Assembly (NCBI GenBank): GCA_963713825.1
Contig: CAVQNG010000025.1
Coordinates: 704,001 to 768,000 of the forward strand
Reading direction: 5' to 3'
DNA: 64,000 bases
Source: an uncultured Acidobacteriota bacterium
GTDB taxonomy: Bacteria; Acidobacteriota; Thermoanaerobaculia; Multivoradales; JAHEKO01
The notes beneath the pieces were generated by a model that was not told the origin of the DNA, made no database searches, and saw only the letters and a program-made list of their open reading frames with translations. Positions 34,905 to 43,273 of this stretch are shown here, piece after piece (position 1 is the first letter of the stretch; the number at the start of each line of letters is the position of its first letter). The translations under genes were made by a program, and so were the position numbers.

Positions 34905-36236
34905 TCAGTGTTCCCTCAGTCGTCGGTAGAGGGTGCGCTCCGAGATTCCCAGCCGATCAGCCAGCTGGGCGCGCGAGCCGTCGAAGCGACTGCCCATCCA
35001 TTGGATGTAGCGGGTTTCGACATCGTCGAGAGATAGGATTCGGTCGATGTCGATGGGGATCGGCATCTCGCAGCCCACGTTTGTGTCGTTCGTCCCGATC
35101 AGGGGCAGGTGCTCCCGGTCGATGCGGCCGCTATCGCTGAGTAGGCAGGCGCGTTCCAGCATGTTATGCAGCTCGCGAACATTGCCTGGGAAGCTGTGAG
35201 ACCGCAGCACCTCGAGGGCCTCGTCGGTCAGGTGGCAGTGGCCGCCGCAGCCCAGGCGATCGAAGATGCAAGCGGCCAGCAACGGAATGTCCTCCCATCT
35301 CTCGCGCAGCGTCGGCAGGTGGATCGGAAAGGCACTGATCCGATAGTAGAGGTCTTCGCGGAACTGCTCGGCCTCGACCAGCTTCGTCAGGTCGCGGTGG
35401 GTAGCGCAGACCAATCGGAAGTCGGAGCGCCGCTGCTCGACGCTGCCGACCCGCCGAAAGGTGCCAGTTTCGAGCAGTCGCAGCAGCTTGACCTGCAGCG
35501 ACAGCGGAATGTCCCCCACTTCGTCGAGGAAGAGGGTGCCCTCGTTGGCCACCTCGACCAGACCTCGCTTGCGCTCATGAGCCCCGGTGAAGGAGCCCTT
35601 TTCGTGGCCAAAGAGCTCGCTCTCGAACAGTGTTTCGGTGAGCCCCGAGCAGTCCAGGGGTACGAAGGGACCGCTGCTCCGTGAGCTCAACGAGTGAACC
35701 GCACGGGACACCAGATCCTTGCCGGTACCCGATTCGCCGAGCAGCAGCACCGTCGTCGGGGTGTCAGCGACCCGCGTTACGAGGTCGAGCATGCGCTCGA
35801 AGGCGGGTGATCGCCCGACCATCTGTCCGTCTCGAGAGGACTTGAGGCTGGCGATCTGTTGCGGGGCCAGCACCTCCAGATAGAAGCGGATTCGGCCACG
35901 GTTGTCGCAGAGCGGATGCACGGTGACCGACTCGTGTTGCTCGCCTTCGGCGGTGTGGTGGATGTGCAGCGCCGGACACCGCGTGCCGCTGGCTCGGGCT
36001 CCGGCCAGGGGACAGCTTTCGCCGAGCTGGTCGCAGGGAATCCTGTAGTGGTGAGAGACCTCGTAGCAGTGCTTACCACAGACCCGATCGCCCTCCGCGA
36101 AGTGTTCGCGGTAGGCCTGGTTGGCAGCGACGATCTGATGTTCATCGTTGATGATGACCGCCGGCTCGCGAAGCCCCTCGAGCACCGAGGGCAGCGTGAC
36201 GTCCGAGAGGGGGGAGATTCTGTTGCTATCGATCAT
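34905..36236 (-). CDS. PAS-domain sigma-54 enhancer-binding protein (intact AAA+)
   Basis: [41 protein letters not shown]; paralog of the 30714 gene. Confidence 0.93.
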
Positions 36237-36245
36237 GTTTGACTC

Positions 36246-36710
36246 TCAGCGGCCGGGGCCGTTGCCTCTCTGCCCGTGTCCGCCGCGTCCCCCCATCGCT
36301 CCCTGACCGGGACCCCCCTGCCAGGCGCCGACGCCATCCCAGAGCGGGATACGGTGGAGCGTGCGCAGGCGCAGCATGGTGTGGCGGGTCAGGTTCTGGA
36401 CCTTGTGCACCTTGGCGGGTCCATCATCGGCTGGGAAGACTCGAGCTTGTATCTGGTCCCCCTGTTCGACCTGGAAATCAACTTCATCTAGGGCGGCTTT
36501 GGGTGCCAGCAGGAGGTCCATTTTCTTCCCCTCTGCTCCCGTGGGTGCGAGGGTTACCGACAGGACTTCGAGATCGCCCTCACCCGGTGCCGATGCGACG
36601 CTCAGAACCGTGCCCTCGACCGTGATGAGCGAGGAGCGCAGATCGTCCTTGGAGCTGGCCCCGATCAGCATGAGCACCGCAAGGCAGATTGCTGCAAATC
36701 GGAGCCTCAT
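36246..36710 (-). CDS. Exported OB-fold protein (MamS/MamX-domain-like) with Gly-rich tail
   Basis: Signal peptide; TVEGTV...LLLAP...GDQIQARV...LRLRTLHRIPLW pattern; ATGA overlap with the upstream gene. Family call from remembered pattern. Confidence 0.7.
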   Translation of the reverse strand: MRLRFAAICLAVLMLIGASSKDDLRSSLITVEGTVLSVASAPGEGDLEVLSVTLAPTGAEGKKMDLLLAPKAALDEVDFQVEQGDQIQARVFPADDGPAKVHKVQNLTRHTMLRLRTLHRIPLWDGVGAWQGGPGQGAMGGRGGHGQRGNGPGR

Positions 36711-37621
36711 CGCACGGGTCCCCGGGTACCTACGGTTGGTGTCGAGACACCGAAGGAAGTGCCGAAGAGAATCGTGAAGTCCTGAGCGGCGTCCGTTAGC
36801 CCGAGAGTAGTGAGAAGGCGCCAGCGCATCTTGCCAAGACTGCGCAGGCCGAAGCCCAATGCCGCCCTTGAGCCCAGGCCATCGACGACTTCGGGATTGC
36901 CCTCCACCCAACCCGACAGGATCAACCGGCCGCCCAGTGGTTCACTCTCGACACCGACGTAGCCCTCGACAACGTCGTTCAGGGTCTGCCAATCGGGATC
37001 GCCCAGGTAGTTCCAGCCGAAACCGCCGAAGCCCGTGGCGGACCAGAACCGGTACTCACTTGTCAGACCGAGGTAGGCGTCCCACTCGCCGGTGCCGAGC
37101 CCTTCGTCGGGATCGGCGGTCGGTACCTTCACTTGCGCTCCGAGATCCATTCGAAAGACCTTGGCACCACCTCCCATCAGGCGCCGGCTGCCAGCCAATC
37201 GAACATCTCCCAGGCCGGAGACCCACTCGTCCTCGACGGTGGTGACCGGGTCCGAGGTCTGGCCGTCGCTCGAGTCGGATCCGGTGCCCCCGGCCGAGCC
37301 GTTGCCGGAATTCGAAGAGATCTGGCTGGCGCTCTGCCCGCCAGATCCGTGCGGTCCTCGCGGCTTTCCCGGTACCGGTCCCTGTCCACTCGGGATGGGT
37401 GCGCCGAGTTCCTTCCGCAGAAAGCCGACGTCGGCTCTGAACTGGTACTTGTCGCCGGTCACGAAGGTGAGCTGGCCAGCTTGGGCAGCGGTATCAGTGT
37501 CGGTACCATAGCTCGCCTGCGTGATTCCACCCAGTAGGAAGAGCTCACCACTGAAAGCGACTACTGGGGTCGACGCCAGCAGGGCCGCGACGATGAGGAG
37601 AACGACAGTTTTGTCAGACAT
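36707..37621 (-). CDS. Putative outer-membrane beta-barrel (MetA-pathway/SphA 'transporter'-like)
   Basis: Signal peptide; GLGDVRL, VKVPTADPDEGLGTGEWD; amphipathic beta strands; Ser/Gly-rich insertion. Confidence 0.7.
   Translation of the reverse strand: MSDKTVVLLIVAALLASTPVVAFSGELFLLGGITQASYGTDTDTAAQAGQLTFVTGDKYQFRADVGFLRKELGAPIPSGQGPVPGKPRGPHGSGGQSASQISSNSGNGSAGGTGSDSSDGQTSDPVTTVEDEWVSGLGDVRLAGSRRLMGGGAKVFRMDLGAQVKVPTADPDEGLGTGEWDAYLGLTSEYRFWSATGFGGFGWNYLGDPDWQTLNDVVEGYVGVESEPLGGRLILSGWVEGNPEVVDGLGSRAALGFGLRSLGKMRWRLLTTLGLTDAAQDFTILFGTSFGVSTPTVGTRGPVR

Positions 37622-37760: not shown

Positions 37761-37778
<18 letters not shown>
37731..37778. promoter_or_regulatory. Tandem candidate activator sites (UAS type 1)
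   Basis: TTCGAC-AATTTC-GTCGAA, then TACGACGATTCTTGCCG 31 nt later; same layout at 41547. Confidence 0.7.
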
Positions 37779-39134
<1,356 letters not shown>

Positions 39135-39145
39135 GCCTCTGCCTT

Positions 39146-40762
39146 TCAGTCGATTGGGAGCTTCATCACCGCTTCTGCTCCGCCATCTTCGAGATTGACT
39201 AGGGTCACCGATCCTCCATGGTCCTCGGCAACCCGCTTGACCAGTGCCAAGCCAAGCCCGGTGCCGGAATCTCGGCCCGTCACGAAGGGATCGAAAAACC
39301 TGCCGTCCAACTCCGGGTCGAGCCCTGGTCCCTGGTCCTGAATGCGAATCAGTGCCATGCCGTTGTGCTCTGCCGCTTGCACGGCAATCCGCCCCCCAGA
39401 GGGGCTAGCCTGAATAGCGTTGCGAATGAGGTTGATCATGGCTCTGTGGATGGATTGCCGGTCAATCCTCGCGGAAGCCGAGCCGGAGACCTCCTCGAGC
39501 AGCACGCCTCGATCGGCAGCTTCTTCGGACATCAGGTCCAAGACCTCCCGCGCGATGGTCACCAGATCGGTTTCGGAGCGCCGGTCGGACACCGGGCTCG
39601 CCAATTCGAGAAAACCCCGCAGAACTCCTTCGAGGCGGCCAATCTCTGCCCGAATGCGACCGGCAATGCGCCGCAACTCGGTGTTGTCGGGCAACTTTCT
39701 CTCGAGGCGTTGAGCTGCCAGGCCGATGGCGTTCATCGGGCTCCGAACTTCGTGGGCCATTCCCGCCGTCAAGGCACCGGCGGCAGCCAGTCGCTCGCTG
39801 CGACGTCGTGCAGTCTCGGCCTCGGCTAGCCGTTGACTGGCCTCCTCACGCTCACGGGCGCGCAGTCGACTGACGACGGCGAACCCGGCCGCGCTGACGG
39901 CGAAGCCGGTCAGGATCAGCCCGAGTAACAGGGACCTCCACATGGTCTGCGAGGCCGTTCGTTGGAGTCCGCTACCGTCCAAGCCGACGCGTAGGGCAGC
40001 GCTGGTTCCGGCCGGTGATTCGATGGGCATTTCCACTTCTAGAGCGGTCTGCCCGCGGAGATCGAAGAGTCGCTGGTTCGATGGCGGCCTCGGTGGCACG
40101 GCGCCATCGTCCCAGGCGACGTCGACCACATTCCCAGAAGGTTCCTCGCGATAGCTGAGGTAGAGCACCCCTCCTGCGCCTACCAGTCTTTGCAGCAGGT
40201 TCTCGACCCCGAGCCGACGCGCGAAGGTTCGGGCCGTAGACGGATGAACTCGGACCAGCACTACGCCTCCGGAGGGCGTTCGCACAGCAGCGCCCAGATG
40301 CTCGACACCGTCTTCGAGTGAGGTGCCCAGAACAACCTCATCGGCGTCTTTGTTGAAGAGGTCTTGTAGCTCGTCTTTGACCCTTTCGGGCACCCCTTCC
40401 CCCAGGAGCTGGCGTTCTTGCTGGTCTGAGTCATAGAAGACGACCGAGTCGAGGCCGTTGTTGGCCGCCAGATCTTCGAGCAGCTCCTGGTCGTCTCTCC
40501 CAGCCTGTCGCAGCTCCGCCAGGAGGCGCGCGTTGTCGAGCATCTTCCAGGCAATGATCTCGTCGAGCTCGCGGCTGGCATGGGATGCGGCCACCAGCCC
40601 TGGTCCGAGCGACCTCGCCAGGACGGTGGCTTGTGCGGTGAGCGCTGCCTGGACCTGGCTGCGCTGATGGCGCGCTTCGAGGATAGTCCAGCTGAATAGC
40701 AGGACAGCCAGCAGCAGGGAGAAGACAACTAAGGTACGGGCGCGAGCTGGGCTCACGGGCAC
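39146..40762 (-). CDS. Sensor histidine kinase (NtrB/ZraS-like, periplasmic sensor)
   Basis: Two TM segments, ERLAAAG...MAHEVRSPM, NLIRNAIQA, DQGPG, GTGLGL. Confidence 0.93.
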   Translation of the reverse strand: MPVSPARARTLVVFSLLLAVLLFSWTILEARHQRSQVQAALTAQATVLARSLGPGLVAASHASRELDEIIAWKMLDNARLLAELRQAGRDDQELLEDLAANNGLDSVVFYDSDQQERQLLGEGVPERVKDELQDLFNKDADEVVLGTSLEDGVEHLGAAVRTPSGGVVLVRVHPSTARTFARRLGVENLLQRLVGAGGVLYLSYREEPSGNVVDVAWDDGAVPPRPPSNQRLFDLRGQTALEVEMPIESPAGTSAALRVGLDGSGLQRTASQTMWRSLLLGLILTGFAVSAAGFAVVSRLRAREREEASQRLAEAETARRRSERLAAAGALTAGMAHEVRSPMNAIGLAAQRLERKLPDNTELRRIAGRIRAEIGRLEGVLRGFLELASPVSDRRSETDLVTIAREVLDLMSEEAADRGVLLEEVSGSASARIDRQSIHRAMINLIRNAIQASPSGGRIAVQAAEHNGMALIRIQDQGPGLDPELDGRFFDPFVTGRDSGTGLGLALVKRVAEDHGGSVTLVNLEDGGAEAVMKLPID

Positions 40763-40859: not shown

Positions 40860-41381
40860 TCAACCTCTGCCGTTGCCGCCGCGGTTTCCACCACCGCCAC
40901 CGCCTCCACCACGGTTGCCGCCACCCTGGCCTCCGCCCTGGCAGTTGCCGTTTCCAGTCCCCTGGTTGTTCCCACGCTGATGTCCCGCTCCGGAGCCATC
41001 CCGGAGCCGCTGCTGGGTCCCGACCATCTGGCCACCCTGGTTCTTGTAAGAGCTCATCTGTCTGTTGCGTTTCACCTTCATCGATTGCACCTGTCCAGCC
41101 TGGCCCCCAGATCCCTGCATGACCCGGGCCCGAACCTGGTCTCCGACCTGCACGCAATCGGCGCACTGGCCTGCTCGACCCAGCCTCAGCTGCATCTCCT
41201 CGCCCTGTCGGGTTCTGATGGTGAAGTGATCGAACTCGCCATCGTTCTGGGTCTGTTGCTGCTGTTGGAGTTGGATCACCTCTCCTCGCACCTTCTGGGT
41301 ACTCTCCTGAGCCGAGAGGGGGAGGGTGGTGTAGAGGGCCGCCACGATTATCAGGGTCATGATCTTTGCTGCTCGTTTCAT
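40860..41381 (-). CDS. Exported OB-fold protein with CxxC and Gln/Gly-rich low-complexity tail
   Basis: GGAGG RBS before ATG 41381; signal peptide; KVRGEV...LRLG...QCADC...VGDQVRARV; tail QQRLRDGSG...GGGNRGGG. Confidence 0.8.
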   Translation of the reverse strand: MKRAAKIMTLIIVAALYTTLPLSAQESTQKVRGEVIQLQQQQQTQNDGEFDHFTIRTRQGEEMQLRLGRAGQCADCVQVGDQVRARVMQGSGGQAGQVQSMKVKRNRQMSSYKNQGGQMVGTQQRLRDGSGAGHQRGNNQGTGNGNCQGGGQGGGNRGGGGGGGGNRGGNGRG

Positions 41382-41456
41382 GGTTTCGTTCCTCCGCATT
41401 TCCGCAGTGGGTCTGGTTTGTGAGTCCTCTTTCATGCCCATCAACGGTGGGATATA

Positions 41457-41471
41457 GCAGAGTTCGTGCCA
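41457..41471 (-). promoter_or_regulatory. Sigma-54 (-24/-12) promoter
   Basis: Minus strand TGGCAC-GAACT-CTGC(T). Confidence 0.8.
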
Positions 41472-41546
41472 GATCTTGAGAGCGTTGTAACTGTTGAGTT
41501 GAATGCTACTTATGAGAGAGGCGTCGCGTTCTCGACGCTTTCTCGC

Positions 41547-41594
41547 TTCGACAATCGCGTCGAATGAGAGGCCTGGCTTCGACGGATCTTGCCG
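41547..41594. promoter_or_regulatory. Tandem candidate activator sites (UAS type 1)
   Basis: TTCGAC-AATCGC-GTCGAA, then TTCGACGGATCTTGCCG 31 nt later. Confidence 0.7.
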
Positions 41595-41662
41595 CCCGGA
41601 TCGGCGTTGGGATCCGGCATGCTCGCTGAGCGAGACGCTTCTTTGCGCCTGCTCTCCCAAGG

Positions 41663-41693
41663 GCTTGTGATTTTCTTCACAAGCTGTTATGAT
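41663..41693 (+). promoter_or_regulatory. Sigma-70 promoter overlapped by a Rex/CRP-type palindrome
   Basis: TTGTGA-N17-TATGAT with extended -10 TGn; palindrome GCTTGTGA-TTTTCT-TCACAAGC covers the -35 element. Confidence 0.7.
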
Positions 41694-41699
41694 CCTTTC

Positions 41700-41910
41700 A
41701 AGTTAGCTCGAAAGAGCTGGAGAGTATTGACTGGGAGGTTCCCCTTTCGAAGAGTGTTTTCCTACCAACTCTATCGGAGATCGCAAGATCTCGAACGCCT
41801 CTAGATACTCCTATCCCATTCCCTGGAAATCACCAGGGTAAAGTCGAAACCAACCAACCTACAACGGAACCTCCCAATCCTCTCTCTCCGATCGCAAGAT
41901 CGGAGGGGGA
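41700..41910 (+). ncRNA. Candidate structured non-coding RNA (family not recognised)
   Basis: Three GNRA-capped hairpins, an 11-bp long-range helix (41732-41742/41866-41876), C/A-rich unpaired linkers, own promoter, no credible ORF. Confidence 0.65.
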
Positions 41911-42187
41911 GCTCCGCGCTGTCTCCTGAGACCAGCAGAATCAGTGATGGGGCCGGTCGAATTTCTTCTCGCCCGCCTCGATGCGGGCCTCCAGACGGTT
42001 CTGTCTCGGGCAGAGCATCCAGACGCAGAGTCTTCCCGGCTACCGTAAAGATCACCGCGCCCCACGATGTTTGTTGATTGATCGTCCCCATGACATTGGG
42101 GATCGAAGTCAGGAATGCTGCAGTTCGTTGGATTGCCCAGTTCGAGTGCGCCGTCTCTGTCCCAGTCTGGCTTAGACTATCCCAGCG

Positions 42188-43273
42188 ATGTCGACCAAAA
42201 AGGAAGGACTCGGTGACAATGAGAGCTTCGAAGTGAGCCGCGATCCAGCATCGATCCGGAGCGGCTCGAGGCAGGCACCTTTCTTCTCGGTCGTGATTCC
42301 CGTACTGAATGGAGGGCCGGTGTTTCGAGAGTCTCTCGCAGCGCTGCACCGATCGTCCTTCAGGGACTTCGAGGTGTGGGTTGTGGATGACGGCTCGACC
42401 GATGGTTCCGTCGCGGCGGCCGAAGAGTCAGGGGCTCGTCTCCTGGGGACTCGGGGACGGCAGGGACCTTCCGTGGCCCGCAATCTGGGGGCTGAGAAGG
42501 CTCGGGGGGAGTTCCTCTTGTTTGTCGATGCCGACTGCAGTGTCGGGCCGGAGACGCTGAGCCTGGCGGCAGCCGCGTTGCGCGCCGACGAATCACTGGA
42601 TGCTCTGTTCGGGTCCTACGATGACGAGCCGGCCGCCCCCGGATGGGTGGCACAGTACAAGAACTTGCAGCACCACTGGGTTCATCAGCAGGGAGCCCCC
42701 GATGCCTCGACCTTCTGGGCCGGTTGCGGCGCGATTCGCCGCCGAGTCTTCCTGGACCTGGGGGGCTTCGACGAGGTTCGCTACCCTCGGCCCACCATCG
42801 AAGACATCGAGTTGGGTTACCGACTACGGGCCTCGGGCCGGCGCATTCGCCTCGCCAAGGAGGTGCAGGTCAAGCACCACAAGGCCTGGTCTCTGCAGAG
42901 CGTCGTTCAGAGCGACCTTTTCGACCGGGGAATCCCCTGGAGTGAGCTCCTCGCCGGTCGTGAAGGACCCGCCAAGGAGCTCAATCTCGGCTCGGGCGGT
43001 CGGCTGAGCGTGGTCTCGGCCGTTCTGTTGCTGGCCTCCTTCGTCCTGATTCTGTTCGAGCCACGCTGGGCTCTTCTGGCTGGCCTCGCCCTCGCAACCT
43101 TGCTCTGGCTGAATAGGGACTTCTACAGGTTTCTATCGTCCAAGCGAGGACCGGCCTTTCTACTCGTAGCTCTACCTCTGCATTGGCTCTACTACCTGAA
43201 TTGCGCCGTCGCGTTTCCTGTCGGCCAGTTGCGCTACCAATGGCGTAAGTTGCTGAAGGCAGTAGGGGCTTAG
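42188..43273 (+). CDS. Family 2 glycosyltransferase with C-terminal TM helices
   Basis: SVVIP, VVDDGSTD, ARNLG, FVDAD, GGFDE, IEDIELG. Confidence 0.92.
   Translation: MSTKKEGLGDNESFEVSRDPASIRSGSRQAPFFSVVIPVLNGGPVFRESLAALHRSSFRDFEVWVVDDGSTDGSVAAAEESGARLLGTRGRQGPSVARNLGAEKARGEFLLFVDADCSVGPETLSLAAAALRADESLDALFGSYDDEPAAPGWVAQYKNLQHHWVHQQGAPDASTFWAGCGAIRRRVFLDLGGFDEVRYPRPTIEDIELGYRLRASGRRIRLAKEVQVKHHKAWSLQSVVQSDLFDRGIPWSELLAGREGPAKELNLGSGGRLSVVSAVLLLASFVLILFEPRWALLAGLALATLLWLNRDFYRFLSSKRGPAFLLVALPLHWLYYLNCAVAFPVGQLRYQWRKLLKAVGA

Follow-up and report, generated by a model that had tools for sequence, protein, structure and literature searches.

An undescribed structured small RNA of Thermoanaerobaculia with a Rex-type box at its promoter

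The locus and its promoter

The stretch of DNA considered here, referred to below as the window, comprises 64,000 nucleotides (nt) of contig CAVQNG010000025.1 from the assembly GCA_963713825.1 of an uncultured Acidobacteriota bacterium. Positions 41700-41913 of its plus strand hold an undescribed, strongly folded small RNA (sRNA) of the Thermoanaerobaculia (Acidobacteriota), a stand-alone gene of about 215 nt specific to one family of this class, and it is very likely that this is a real structured RNA gene. The predicted transcript measures about 214 nt, and the covariance model of the family matches 41699-41913. The start is placed near 41700 because of a conserved CA located 6-7 nt past the -10 element, while the 3' end presumably falls just past the last hairpin.

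A promoter scan of positions 41200-42400 returned one sigma-70-type site, against 0.2 expected, and this site lies at 41665-41693, where TTGTGA, a 17-nt spacer and TATGAT preceded by TG follow one another. The extended -10 element TGTTATGAT occupies 41685-41693 on the plus strand, and its GCTGnTAT is conserved among relatives (alignment A1). The "-35" hexamer TTGTGA is at the same time the left arm of a Rex operator-like palindrome, TTGTGATTTTCTTCACAA, at 41665-41682, which is a perfect TTGTGA-N6-TCACAA of 18 base pairs (bp) that covers the -35 element and the spacer.

The segment 41695-41915 of the plus strand folds with RNAfold at -85.3 kcal/mol, compared with -59.2 +/- 4.9 kcal/mol for 200 dinucleotide shuffles (z -5.30), none of which folds as well; the minus strand of the same region reaches z -3.70, with 1 of 200 shuffles as good. 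The plus strand is favoured by the orientation of the promoter, by the GNRA loops and by the G-U pairs of the closing helix P1, which would be C-A on the opposite strand. With the covariance model the plus strand reaches 244.5 bits and the minus strand 23.3 bits, a gap that partly reflects how the model was constructed. A first-pass annotation of the DNA had proposed a structured, multibranched non-coding RNA read from the plus strand, with a promoter directly upstream, and the fold, the promoter scan and the compensatory changes described below support it. The hairpins, the long-range helix and the nearly G-free linkers that it listed are all present where it had placed them, and the minimum-energy fold consists of the same helices.

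Searches of the entire 64-kb window and of 11 related loci gave no match to any Rfam family (release 15, gathering scores), which bears out the novelty that the first-pass annotation had left to such a search. The RF01820 model (RsaE/RoxS) has no gathering-score match in the window and none at E values up to 10 in 41400-42200, and the same holds for the models of Acido-1 and Acido-Lenti-1, RNA motifs reportedly described by Weinberg et al. in 2010 as candidate structured RNAs from Acidobacteria. At E values up to 10, the search of 41400-42200 returned sno_ncR4 (15 bits, cut-off 103) and, outside the RNA, Chlorobi-1 (14.2 bits, cut-off 50), both of which were rejected as chance matches. An identity with 6S RNA was also rejected, given the lack of an Rfam match and a fold that is multibranched and not a long rod with a central bubble. 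Two overlapping reading frames, at 41589-41804 (plus strand) and 41801-42349 (minus strand), are not credible as genes, since single-base insertions and deletions occur inside them among relatives, and no ATG was seen by eye within the RNA.

The next gene on the plus strand, encoding a family 2 glycosyltransferase, starts at 42188, which is 275 nt beyond the sRNA. Between them, at 41941-42100 on the minus strand, lies a remnant of a DUF1684 C-terminus with stop codons inside, which has 13 of 21 residues in common with the intact DUF1684 gene found at the same place in another genus (L013:389-1360, PF07920, 162.8 bits). Given this arrangement, the sRNA stands alone here and is not a leader.

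An RNA family with two classes

Homologues, which the first-pass annotation had left to be collected and examined for a conserved structure, were found, with compensatory changes in their helices. BLAST searches of 40 related genomes gave matches to the locus in four that share its genus (87-93% identity) and in two other genera (69-75%). A covariance model, R1, was built from the seven-way alignment of the window and its relatives, and it matches in 29 of the 45 genomes of the host family. An exact pattern scan of 185,579 species, each represented by a single genome, yielded 57 loci, 55 of which are confirmed by the model. The titles of 53 of these loci read Thermoanaerobaculia, Acidobacteria/Acidobacteriota, Thermoanaerobaculaceae, Thermoanaerobaculum or "Candidatus Multivoradales", and the other four read Solirubrobacterales, Nitrospirota, Planctomycetota and "uncultured bacterium". 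The loci with Nitrospirota (L084) and Planctomycetota (L101) titles are not confirmed by the model and were treated as chance matches. The Solirubrobacterales locus (L076) scores 32.4 bits and has a sigma-54 promoter and the same synteny clusters; its contig may thus be mis-binned. A broader model, R2, applied under stricter filters to a sample of the genomes of the class, matches 14 of 151 sampled genomes, all 14 in families of the window's own order, and 0 of 114 elsewhere. After de-duplication the family comprises 76 distinct sequences. All genome counts are from samples of mostly incomplete metagenome-assembled genomes (MAGs), and model E-values are rough. The 29 of 45 genomes, as well as the 46 sigma-54 promoters (L065) and the 35 of 45 genomes with rex given below, include an unpublished genome (G006), on which no conclusion rests.

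The window RNA belongs to class A, which comprises 22 distinct sequences from 22 of the 45 host-family genomes and 9 of 20 genera, and whose members consist of a 5' hairpin, a core and a 3' hairpin. The remaining sequences match the core only. By pattern, 46 of the 76 sequences have promoters of the GGCAC-N5-TTGC type, typical of the sigma-54 class, and seven others are unclassified, most of them sigma-54-like by eye or cut by a contig end. These sigma-54 elements are not those of the window RNA, which has a sigma-70-type promoter. Loci of the sigma-54 class have a different and likewise conserved setting, in which mutY follows in the same orientation and dnaA, sppA or rimK makes up the other flank. 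In nine MAG loci (L070, L072, L083, L088, L104, L105, L107, L115 and L116) copies of this class stand in tandem about 250-400 nt apart, each with its own promoter. Two copies of this class also occur in a MAG whose record is titled Thermoanaerobaculum sp., a genus with cultured members. A conserved GGAAT(G) is also seen about 6-12 nt before the -24 GG in many loci of the class (for example L071, L080, L089, L115, L118 and L124), and this element may belong to the promoter or be the site of a regulator.

A BLAST search of the genome itself detects no second copy and presents the window locus as single-copy, but R2 does find one, at C3:814783-814956 on the plus strand (locus L133, about 1470-1690), with a score of 84.2 bits and a shorter core. 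This copy is flanked by sppA (minus strand) and mutY (plus strand), and its promoter combines the sigma-54 elements GGCACG-N4-TTGCT with a one-mismatch Rex-like box over -12/+1. RpoN is encoded in the genome (217.3 bits). In a further locus of the same genus (L059), a sigma-54 promoter and a perfect palindrome also occur together.

Helices, single strands and covariation

Five helices, P0 to P4, are conserved through compensatory changes. In the model-fitted alignment of 69 distinct sequences, which is biased towards the model, 91.3% of the cells form standard pairs, compared with 74.7% after shuffling, and 404 cells are changed on both sides, compared with 110.6, a count of 404 being reached in none of 500 shuffles; sliding the 3' partners by 1-3 columns leaves at most 95 such changes. 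The MAFFT alignment of the 22 class A sequences, which is not fitted to the model, gives 86.5% versus 81.6% paired cells for P0-P4 and 47 versus 19.0 for cells in which both sides have changed; none of 500 shuffles reaches 47, and sliding the partners yields at most 27, while the number of further pair types is unexceptional there (71 of 500 shuffles). RNAalifold recovers only P4 and part of P1 from a MAFFT alignment of the core (69 sequences); as the helices shift register in this alignment, pairs were counted on the model-fitted and class A alignments.

Read along the plus strand, the fold begins with P0, the hairpin AGCUC-GAAA-GAGCU at 41705-41718, in which three of five pairs are changed on both sides in class A and five of five in the model-fitted alignment. 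The core is closed by P1, whose Shine-Dalgarno-like 5' strand UGGGAGGUUCC (41732-41742) pairs with the 3' strand GGAACCUCCCA (41866-41876), which includes ACCUCC, both in RNAfold and in the model-fitted alignment; in DNA letters, TGGGAGGTTCC pairs with GGAACCTCCCA over this distance. P1 is paired in 98.8% of the cells of the 69 distinct sequences, its GGGAGG/CCUCCC core is present in 69 of 69, and the helix GGGAGGUUCC/GGAACCUCCC is nearly invariant, with rare compensatory changes, which points to selection on the sequence as well as on the pairing.

Within the core, P2 (41751-41772) is a hairpin of AGAGU (41751-55) and ACUCU (41768-72) whose loop holds the first C-rich motif, UCCUACC (41760-41766). 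It is the weakest helix, with 70.0% of cells paired, and three of its five pairs are changed on both sides in class A. P3, the hairpin GAGAUC-GCAA-GAUCUC at 41777-41792, shows changes on both sides in six of six pairs in the family and five of seven in class A. The second C-rich motif, CCUAUCCCAUUCCC (41810-41823), is unpaired up to 41820, and its last three bases open P4; CCYACC followed by CCAUUCCC is conserved at this place (alignments A5 and A6). P4 itself, CCCUGG-AAAUCA-CCAGGG at 41821-41838, is paired in 97.7% of cells in class A, has compensatory changes in four of six pairs in the family, and has U:A replaced by C:G in 8 of the 22 class A sequences; both P3 and P4 covary freely. After P4, where GGGGUA(A/G)A is conserved, comes a conserved single strand that starts with UAAAG (41839-41865) and contains the third C-rich motif, CCAACCAACC (41850-41859); in this region GGGUAAA/GGGGUAGA and CCAACC/CCCACC are conserved in both classes. 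CCYACC thus recurs in unpaired regions at three fixed places, namely the P2 loop, the P3-P4 linker and the P4-P1 linker, and is conserved at these in alignments A5 and A6.

The RNA ends with a 14-bp hairpin with a GCAA loop at 41880-41911, presumed to be a terminator or a 3' stabiliser, the inner part of which is CTCCGATC-GCAA-GATCGGAG (41886-41905). Its position is kept with differing sequences, and 14 of 14 pairs change on both sides. Two nested pairings that the first-pass annotation had added to the core, TTTCGA (41745-50) with TCGAAA (41844-49) and GAGTGTT (41752-58) with GATACTC (41804-10), can be read in the sequence but are not kept in relatives, where 46.3% of the cells are paired, compared with 45.0% after shuffling (133 of 500 shuffles as high); the relatives support the local hairpin P2 instead.

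Rex and Rex-type boxes

According to PMC5355995, published Rex operators sit between or over the -35 and -10 elements and follow the consensus TTGTGAANNNNTTCACAA, which the palindrome at 41665-41682 matches, and rex is autoregulated in Streptomyces. The palindrome is invariant in seven of seven aligned relatives, as are GCTGnTAT and both strands of P1. In perfect or near-perfect form it is found in all 22 distinct class A sequences, from 9 genera, starting 34-35 nt before the first position of the model, and it is followed there by TGnTAnnnT.

The genome encodes one Rex, which has the winged-helix N-terminus and the Rossmann domain expected of this protein, with PF06971 (52.4 bits) and PF02629 (66.6 bits) in one reading frame on contig C1. 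Only three perfect palindromes occur in its 5.42 Mb: one at the sRNA promoter, one upstream of rex and one next to the gene of a multihaem cytochrome c. Four boxes have one mismatch and lie before a second multihaem cytochrome gene, at the second sRNA copy, before a DUF1800 gene and before a frame without a Pfam family; a control pattern, the Rex box read backward, occurs twice. The region upstream of rex was also scanned in 20 further genomes, from 15 genera. In 7 of them it contains a box with no more than one mismatch, which shuffles of each region produced in at most 1 of 200 cases, and in the remaining 13 none was found within about 525 nt. The rex gene itself was found in 35 of the 45 genomes of the host family and in 21 of the 22 with a class A RNA, the exception being a genome that is 70% complete, while in the genus g17 none of five genomes has rex and none has a class A RNA. 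Since kin are not independent, this co-occurrence is a matter of consistency and not a test.

Judging from these sequence features, Rex probably controls the sRNA promoter. The first-pass annotation had drawn only an analogy to Rex-repressed sRNAs, and this analogy is strengthened by an operator in 22 of 22 class members and by a rex gene that is encoded in the genome and carries the same box upstream.

Two Rex-type boxes, at C5:532324-532341 (L127, no mismatches) and C5:504834-504851 (L131, one mismatch), adjoin two multihaem cytochrome c genes (Paired_CXXCH_1). The sequence suggests that the Rex regulon of this bacterium includes respiratory cytochromes. No description of a Rex regulon in Thermoanaerobaculia was found in the literature searched.

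Traces in RNA libraries

Part of a 601-nt query is present in 13 metatranscriptome RNA-library runs, four of which were examined in detail. One run of the study designated P2 contains a 154-nt contig identical to 41717-41870, and a second run of that study contains three contigs within 41719-41867; in both, the flanks are without cover. In the study designated P1, the contigs extend over the promoter and into the DNA downstream as well, or come from a relative. Parts of the stretch lack cover in runs X2 and X3 and the flanks are covered in X1 and X4, neither of which bears on the transcript ends. As such contigs carry no information on ends, strand or level, they give a weak hint that the sRNA is expressed and abundant.

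A proposed mode of action and its alternatives

The explanation that best joins these observations is a Rex-gated, trans-acting RNA whose C-rich stretches pair with mRNAs, and taken as a whole it is an even call. In this proposal, a sigma-70-type extended -10 promoter would drive the sRNA, with a Rex operator occupying the -35 element and the spacer. At a low NADH/NAD+ ratio Rex would sit on the promoter and block transcription, and when NADH rises, for example at a shortage of electron acceptors, Rex would leave and the RNA would accumulate. The folded RNA, with its 5' GNRA hairpin, its multibranched core closed by P1 and its 3' hairpin, would display the three CCYACC motifs on the core, and these stretches could pair in trans with G-rich sites in mRNAs, possibly with the help of Hfq, which the genome encodes (two matches), and so adjust the translation or stability of these mRNAs. 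RoxS and RsaE follow such a logic, which would have been reached independently here. The role as a base-pairing regulator, taken by itself and argued by analogy, is held tentatively, at slightly less than even confidence.

Partner mRNAs were scanned for with RNAduplex, using the three C-rich segments (S1-S3), each with five shuffles, against 4100 crudely called start regions, with no filter for accessibility or conservation. S1 and S2 have a slight preference for start regions over internal ones, as expected of any C-rich sequence, and S3 has none. The crude gene calls missed the rex, dehydrogenase and glycosyltransferase genes in the queried ranges. As a whole the scan is uninformative and gives no evidence against pairing.

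Several observations nevertheless weigh against the proposal as a whole. With these crude calls, strong duplexes are no commoner than with shuffled segments (for S1 at -18 kcal/mol or below, 69 versus 52-135), and the cytochrome genes with Rex boxes and the neighbouring secreted-protein gene rank poorly as partners in this crude scan. The recurring motif is CCYACC and not the anti-Shine-Dalgarno CCUCC, and the anti-Shine-Dalgarno-like loops suggested by the first-pass annotation are unsupported. No U tract follows the terminal hairpin, which the terminator scan did not call, and both transcript ends are inferred. In 12-13 class A loci a dehydrogenase gene follows on the same strand, so that co-transcription is possible there. 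The contigs of study P1 cover the flanks of the gene, which makes DNA carry-over possible, and the box also fits the CRP consensus TGTGA-N6-TCACA.

The fixed recurrence of CCYACC can also be explained by a protein-titrating sponge, in which three such motifs on a rigid scaffold would bind several copies of one RNA-binding protein and Rex or sigma-54 would set the timing. This explanation, modelled on CsrB/RsmZ or CrcZ and their motifs, is unlikely, but it accounts for the presence of the motif three times at fixed places in both classes despite their differing promoters and contexts, for predicted mRNA partners that are not in excess over shuffled segments, and for the tandem copies in several genomes, which are often seen with sponge RNAs. 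Three motifs are, however, a low number for a sponge, the survey of genomic contexts revealed no gene for an RNA-binding protein as a conserved neighbour, and we know of no bacterial protein with a preference for CCYACC.

Another possibility keeps the RNA as described but has the palindrome bound by a regulator of the CRP/FNR family instead of Rex, and this is improbable. TGTGA-N6-TCACA is generally known as the CRP consensus, and a cyclic-nucleotide-binding-like frame was noticed by eye, from its translation, near the second copy. The box nonetheless has the Rex-specific outer T/A and inner A/T (TTGTGAA..TTCACAA), its centre near -26.5 is a repressor position and not the -41.5 or -61.5 position, rex here has a perfect box upstream and, in 7 of 20 relatives, one with no more than one mismatch, and the genus g17 lacks rex in all five genomes together with the class A RNA, although kin are not independent. 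Rex is therefore the better reading, in view of the flanks, the repressor position and the link with rex.

The genes that follow the RNA in other genomes raise the question of a cis-acting 5' leader, riboswitch-like or protein-bound, which would belong to the dehydrogenase in class A and to mutY in the sigma-54 class, with the window copy left as an orphan by a rearrangement. In 12-13 class A loci of other genera the RNA is followed by a co-oriented short-chain dehydrogenase gene. Most loci of the sigma-54 class, the second copy of this genome among them, have mutY in the same orientation 100-190 nt further downstream, and some members of that class show no obvious hairpin before mutY. A leader is quite improbable all the same: the two classes precede unrelated genes, the class A core is followed by a hairpin that covaries, and in the genus of the window the RNA is kept at 87-93% identity without a same-strand gene behind it. 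Moreover, the Shine-Dalgarno-like strand belongs to the 5' end of the fold, with over 130 nt between it and any start codon, and so cannot be the ribosome site of such a gene.

The closing helix invites yet another interpretation, which is a long shot. P1 (GGAGGU/ACCUCC) might be a mimic of the Shine-Dalgarno/anti-Shine-Dalgarno pairing and, together with the CCYACC motifs, make the RNA a redox- and sigma-54-gated global modulator of translation. ACCUCC is the sequence at the 3' end of 16S rRNA, and an opened helix could compete with 16S rRNA for the ribosome-binding sites of mRNAs, or with mRNAs for the 30S subunit, instead of acting on a few specific targets. If true, this would be an RNA-level link from NADH/NAD+ sensing to bulk translation in Acidobacteriota.

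That the palindromes are features of the DNA (a repeat element or protein-binding sites) or of chance, and not an RNA, is very improbable, for although the minus strand also beats its shuffles (z -3.7), as any inverted repeats would, the locus is single-copy by BLAST and not a dispersed repeat, the G-U pairs and GNRA loops are strand-specific, the helices are kept by compensatory changes amid sequence drift, the promoter is conserved at a fixed distance, and the sequence is present in RNA libraries.

Comparison with known systems

The Rex-gated, trans-acting RNA proposed here resembles RoxS of Bacillus subtilis and RsaE of Staphylococcus in having a Rex box at the promoter and several C-rich single-stranded regions, three in this case, and this is an analogy and not a homology. 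For RoxS, PMC5419742 describes four C-rich regions and repression by Rex, with a gel shift, and places the Rex site just downstream of the start, whereas here it covers the -35 element and the spacer. The host belongs to another phylum, and the Rfam search gives no homology of sequence or structure. RoxS and RsaE are short RNAs of simple hairpins with C runs; the window RNA, in contrast, has about 215 nt, a multibranched core, a long-range closing helix and CCYACC as its motif. The palindrome is comparable with the Rex operators (ROP sites) of Actinobacteria and Firmicutes, being 18 bp long, matching their consensus and lying over the promoter, and rex carries one as well (PMC5355995). Unlike in the known regulons with ROP sites, the product here is an RNA and not a respiratory or fermentation enzyme.

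The sister class can be compared with other RNAs. Qrr of Vibrio, CrcZ of Pseudomonas and GlmY/GlmZ of enterobacteria are sRNAs that depend on sigma-54, and the sister class is similar to them in its GGCAC-N5-TTGC promoters, the RpoN encoded in the genome and the tandem copies in several genomes. It differs from them in that no homology exists and that the window copy is of sigma-70 type. To our knowledge, the combination of a sigma-54 promoter with a Rex-like box over -12/+1 does not occur among Qrr, CrcZ and GlmY/GlmZ.

Full-text literature on small or non-coding RNAs of Acidobacteria or Thermoanaerobaculia and on Rex operators yielded nothing that describes this sRNA, and within the literature searched no regulatory RNA is described for Thermoanaerobaculia, nor for Acidobacteriota any whose regulator is known. 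This is a new RNA family on a known regulatory design, and its unusual features are the sigma-54 sister copies, one of them also with a Rex-like box, and the invariant closing helix with its Shine-Dalgarno-like and anti-Shine-Dalgarno-like strands. If the proposal is true, the design of a C-rich sRNA under Rex control, known from Firmicutes, would have arisen a second time independently, which would suggest a general solution for redox balancing. The Acidobacteriota hosts are abundant and mostly uncultured bacteria of soil and sediment, and the wiring, in which one paralogue would be gated by Rex, others by sigma-54 and one by both, may offer a handle on their response to a shortage of electron acceptors. 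The alignment and the structure are good enough to serve as the seed of a new Rfam family.

Neighbouring genes

In seven class A loci, a gene for an FNR-like NAD-binding oxidoreductase lies upstream of the RNA. In the window, the gene divergent from the sRNA (40860-41381, minus strand) encodes a small secreted Gly/Gln-rich protein without a Pfam family, and a sigma-54-like promoter, TGGCACGAACTCTGCT (GG-N10-GC), lies at 41456-41471 on the minus strand, about 75 nt upstream of its ATG at 41381. This gene is adjoined by a histidine kinase gene (39146-40762), and a Pfam-confirmed response regulator of the sigma-54 activator type is encoded at 37761-39134 on the minus strand. A second regulator of the sigma-54 activator type, recognised by eye from its translation, is found within 5 kb of the first (34905-36236, minus strand), and between the two regulators lies the frame of a second small secreted Gly-rich protein (36246-36911).

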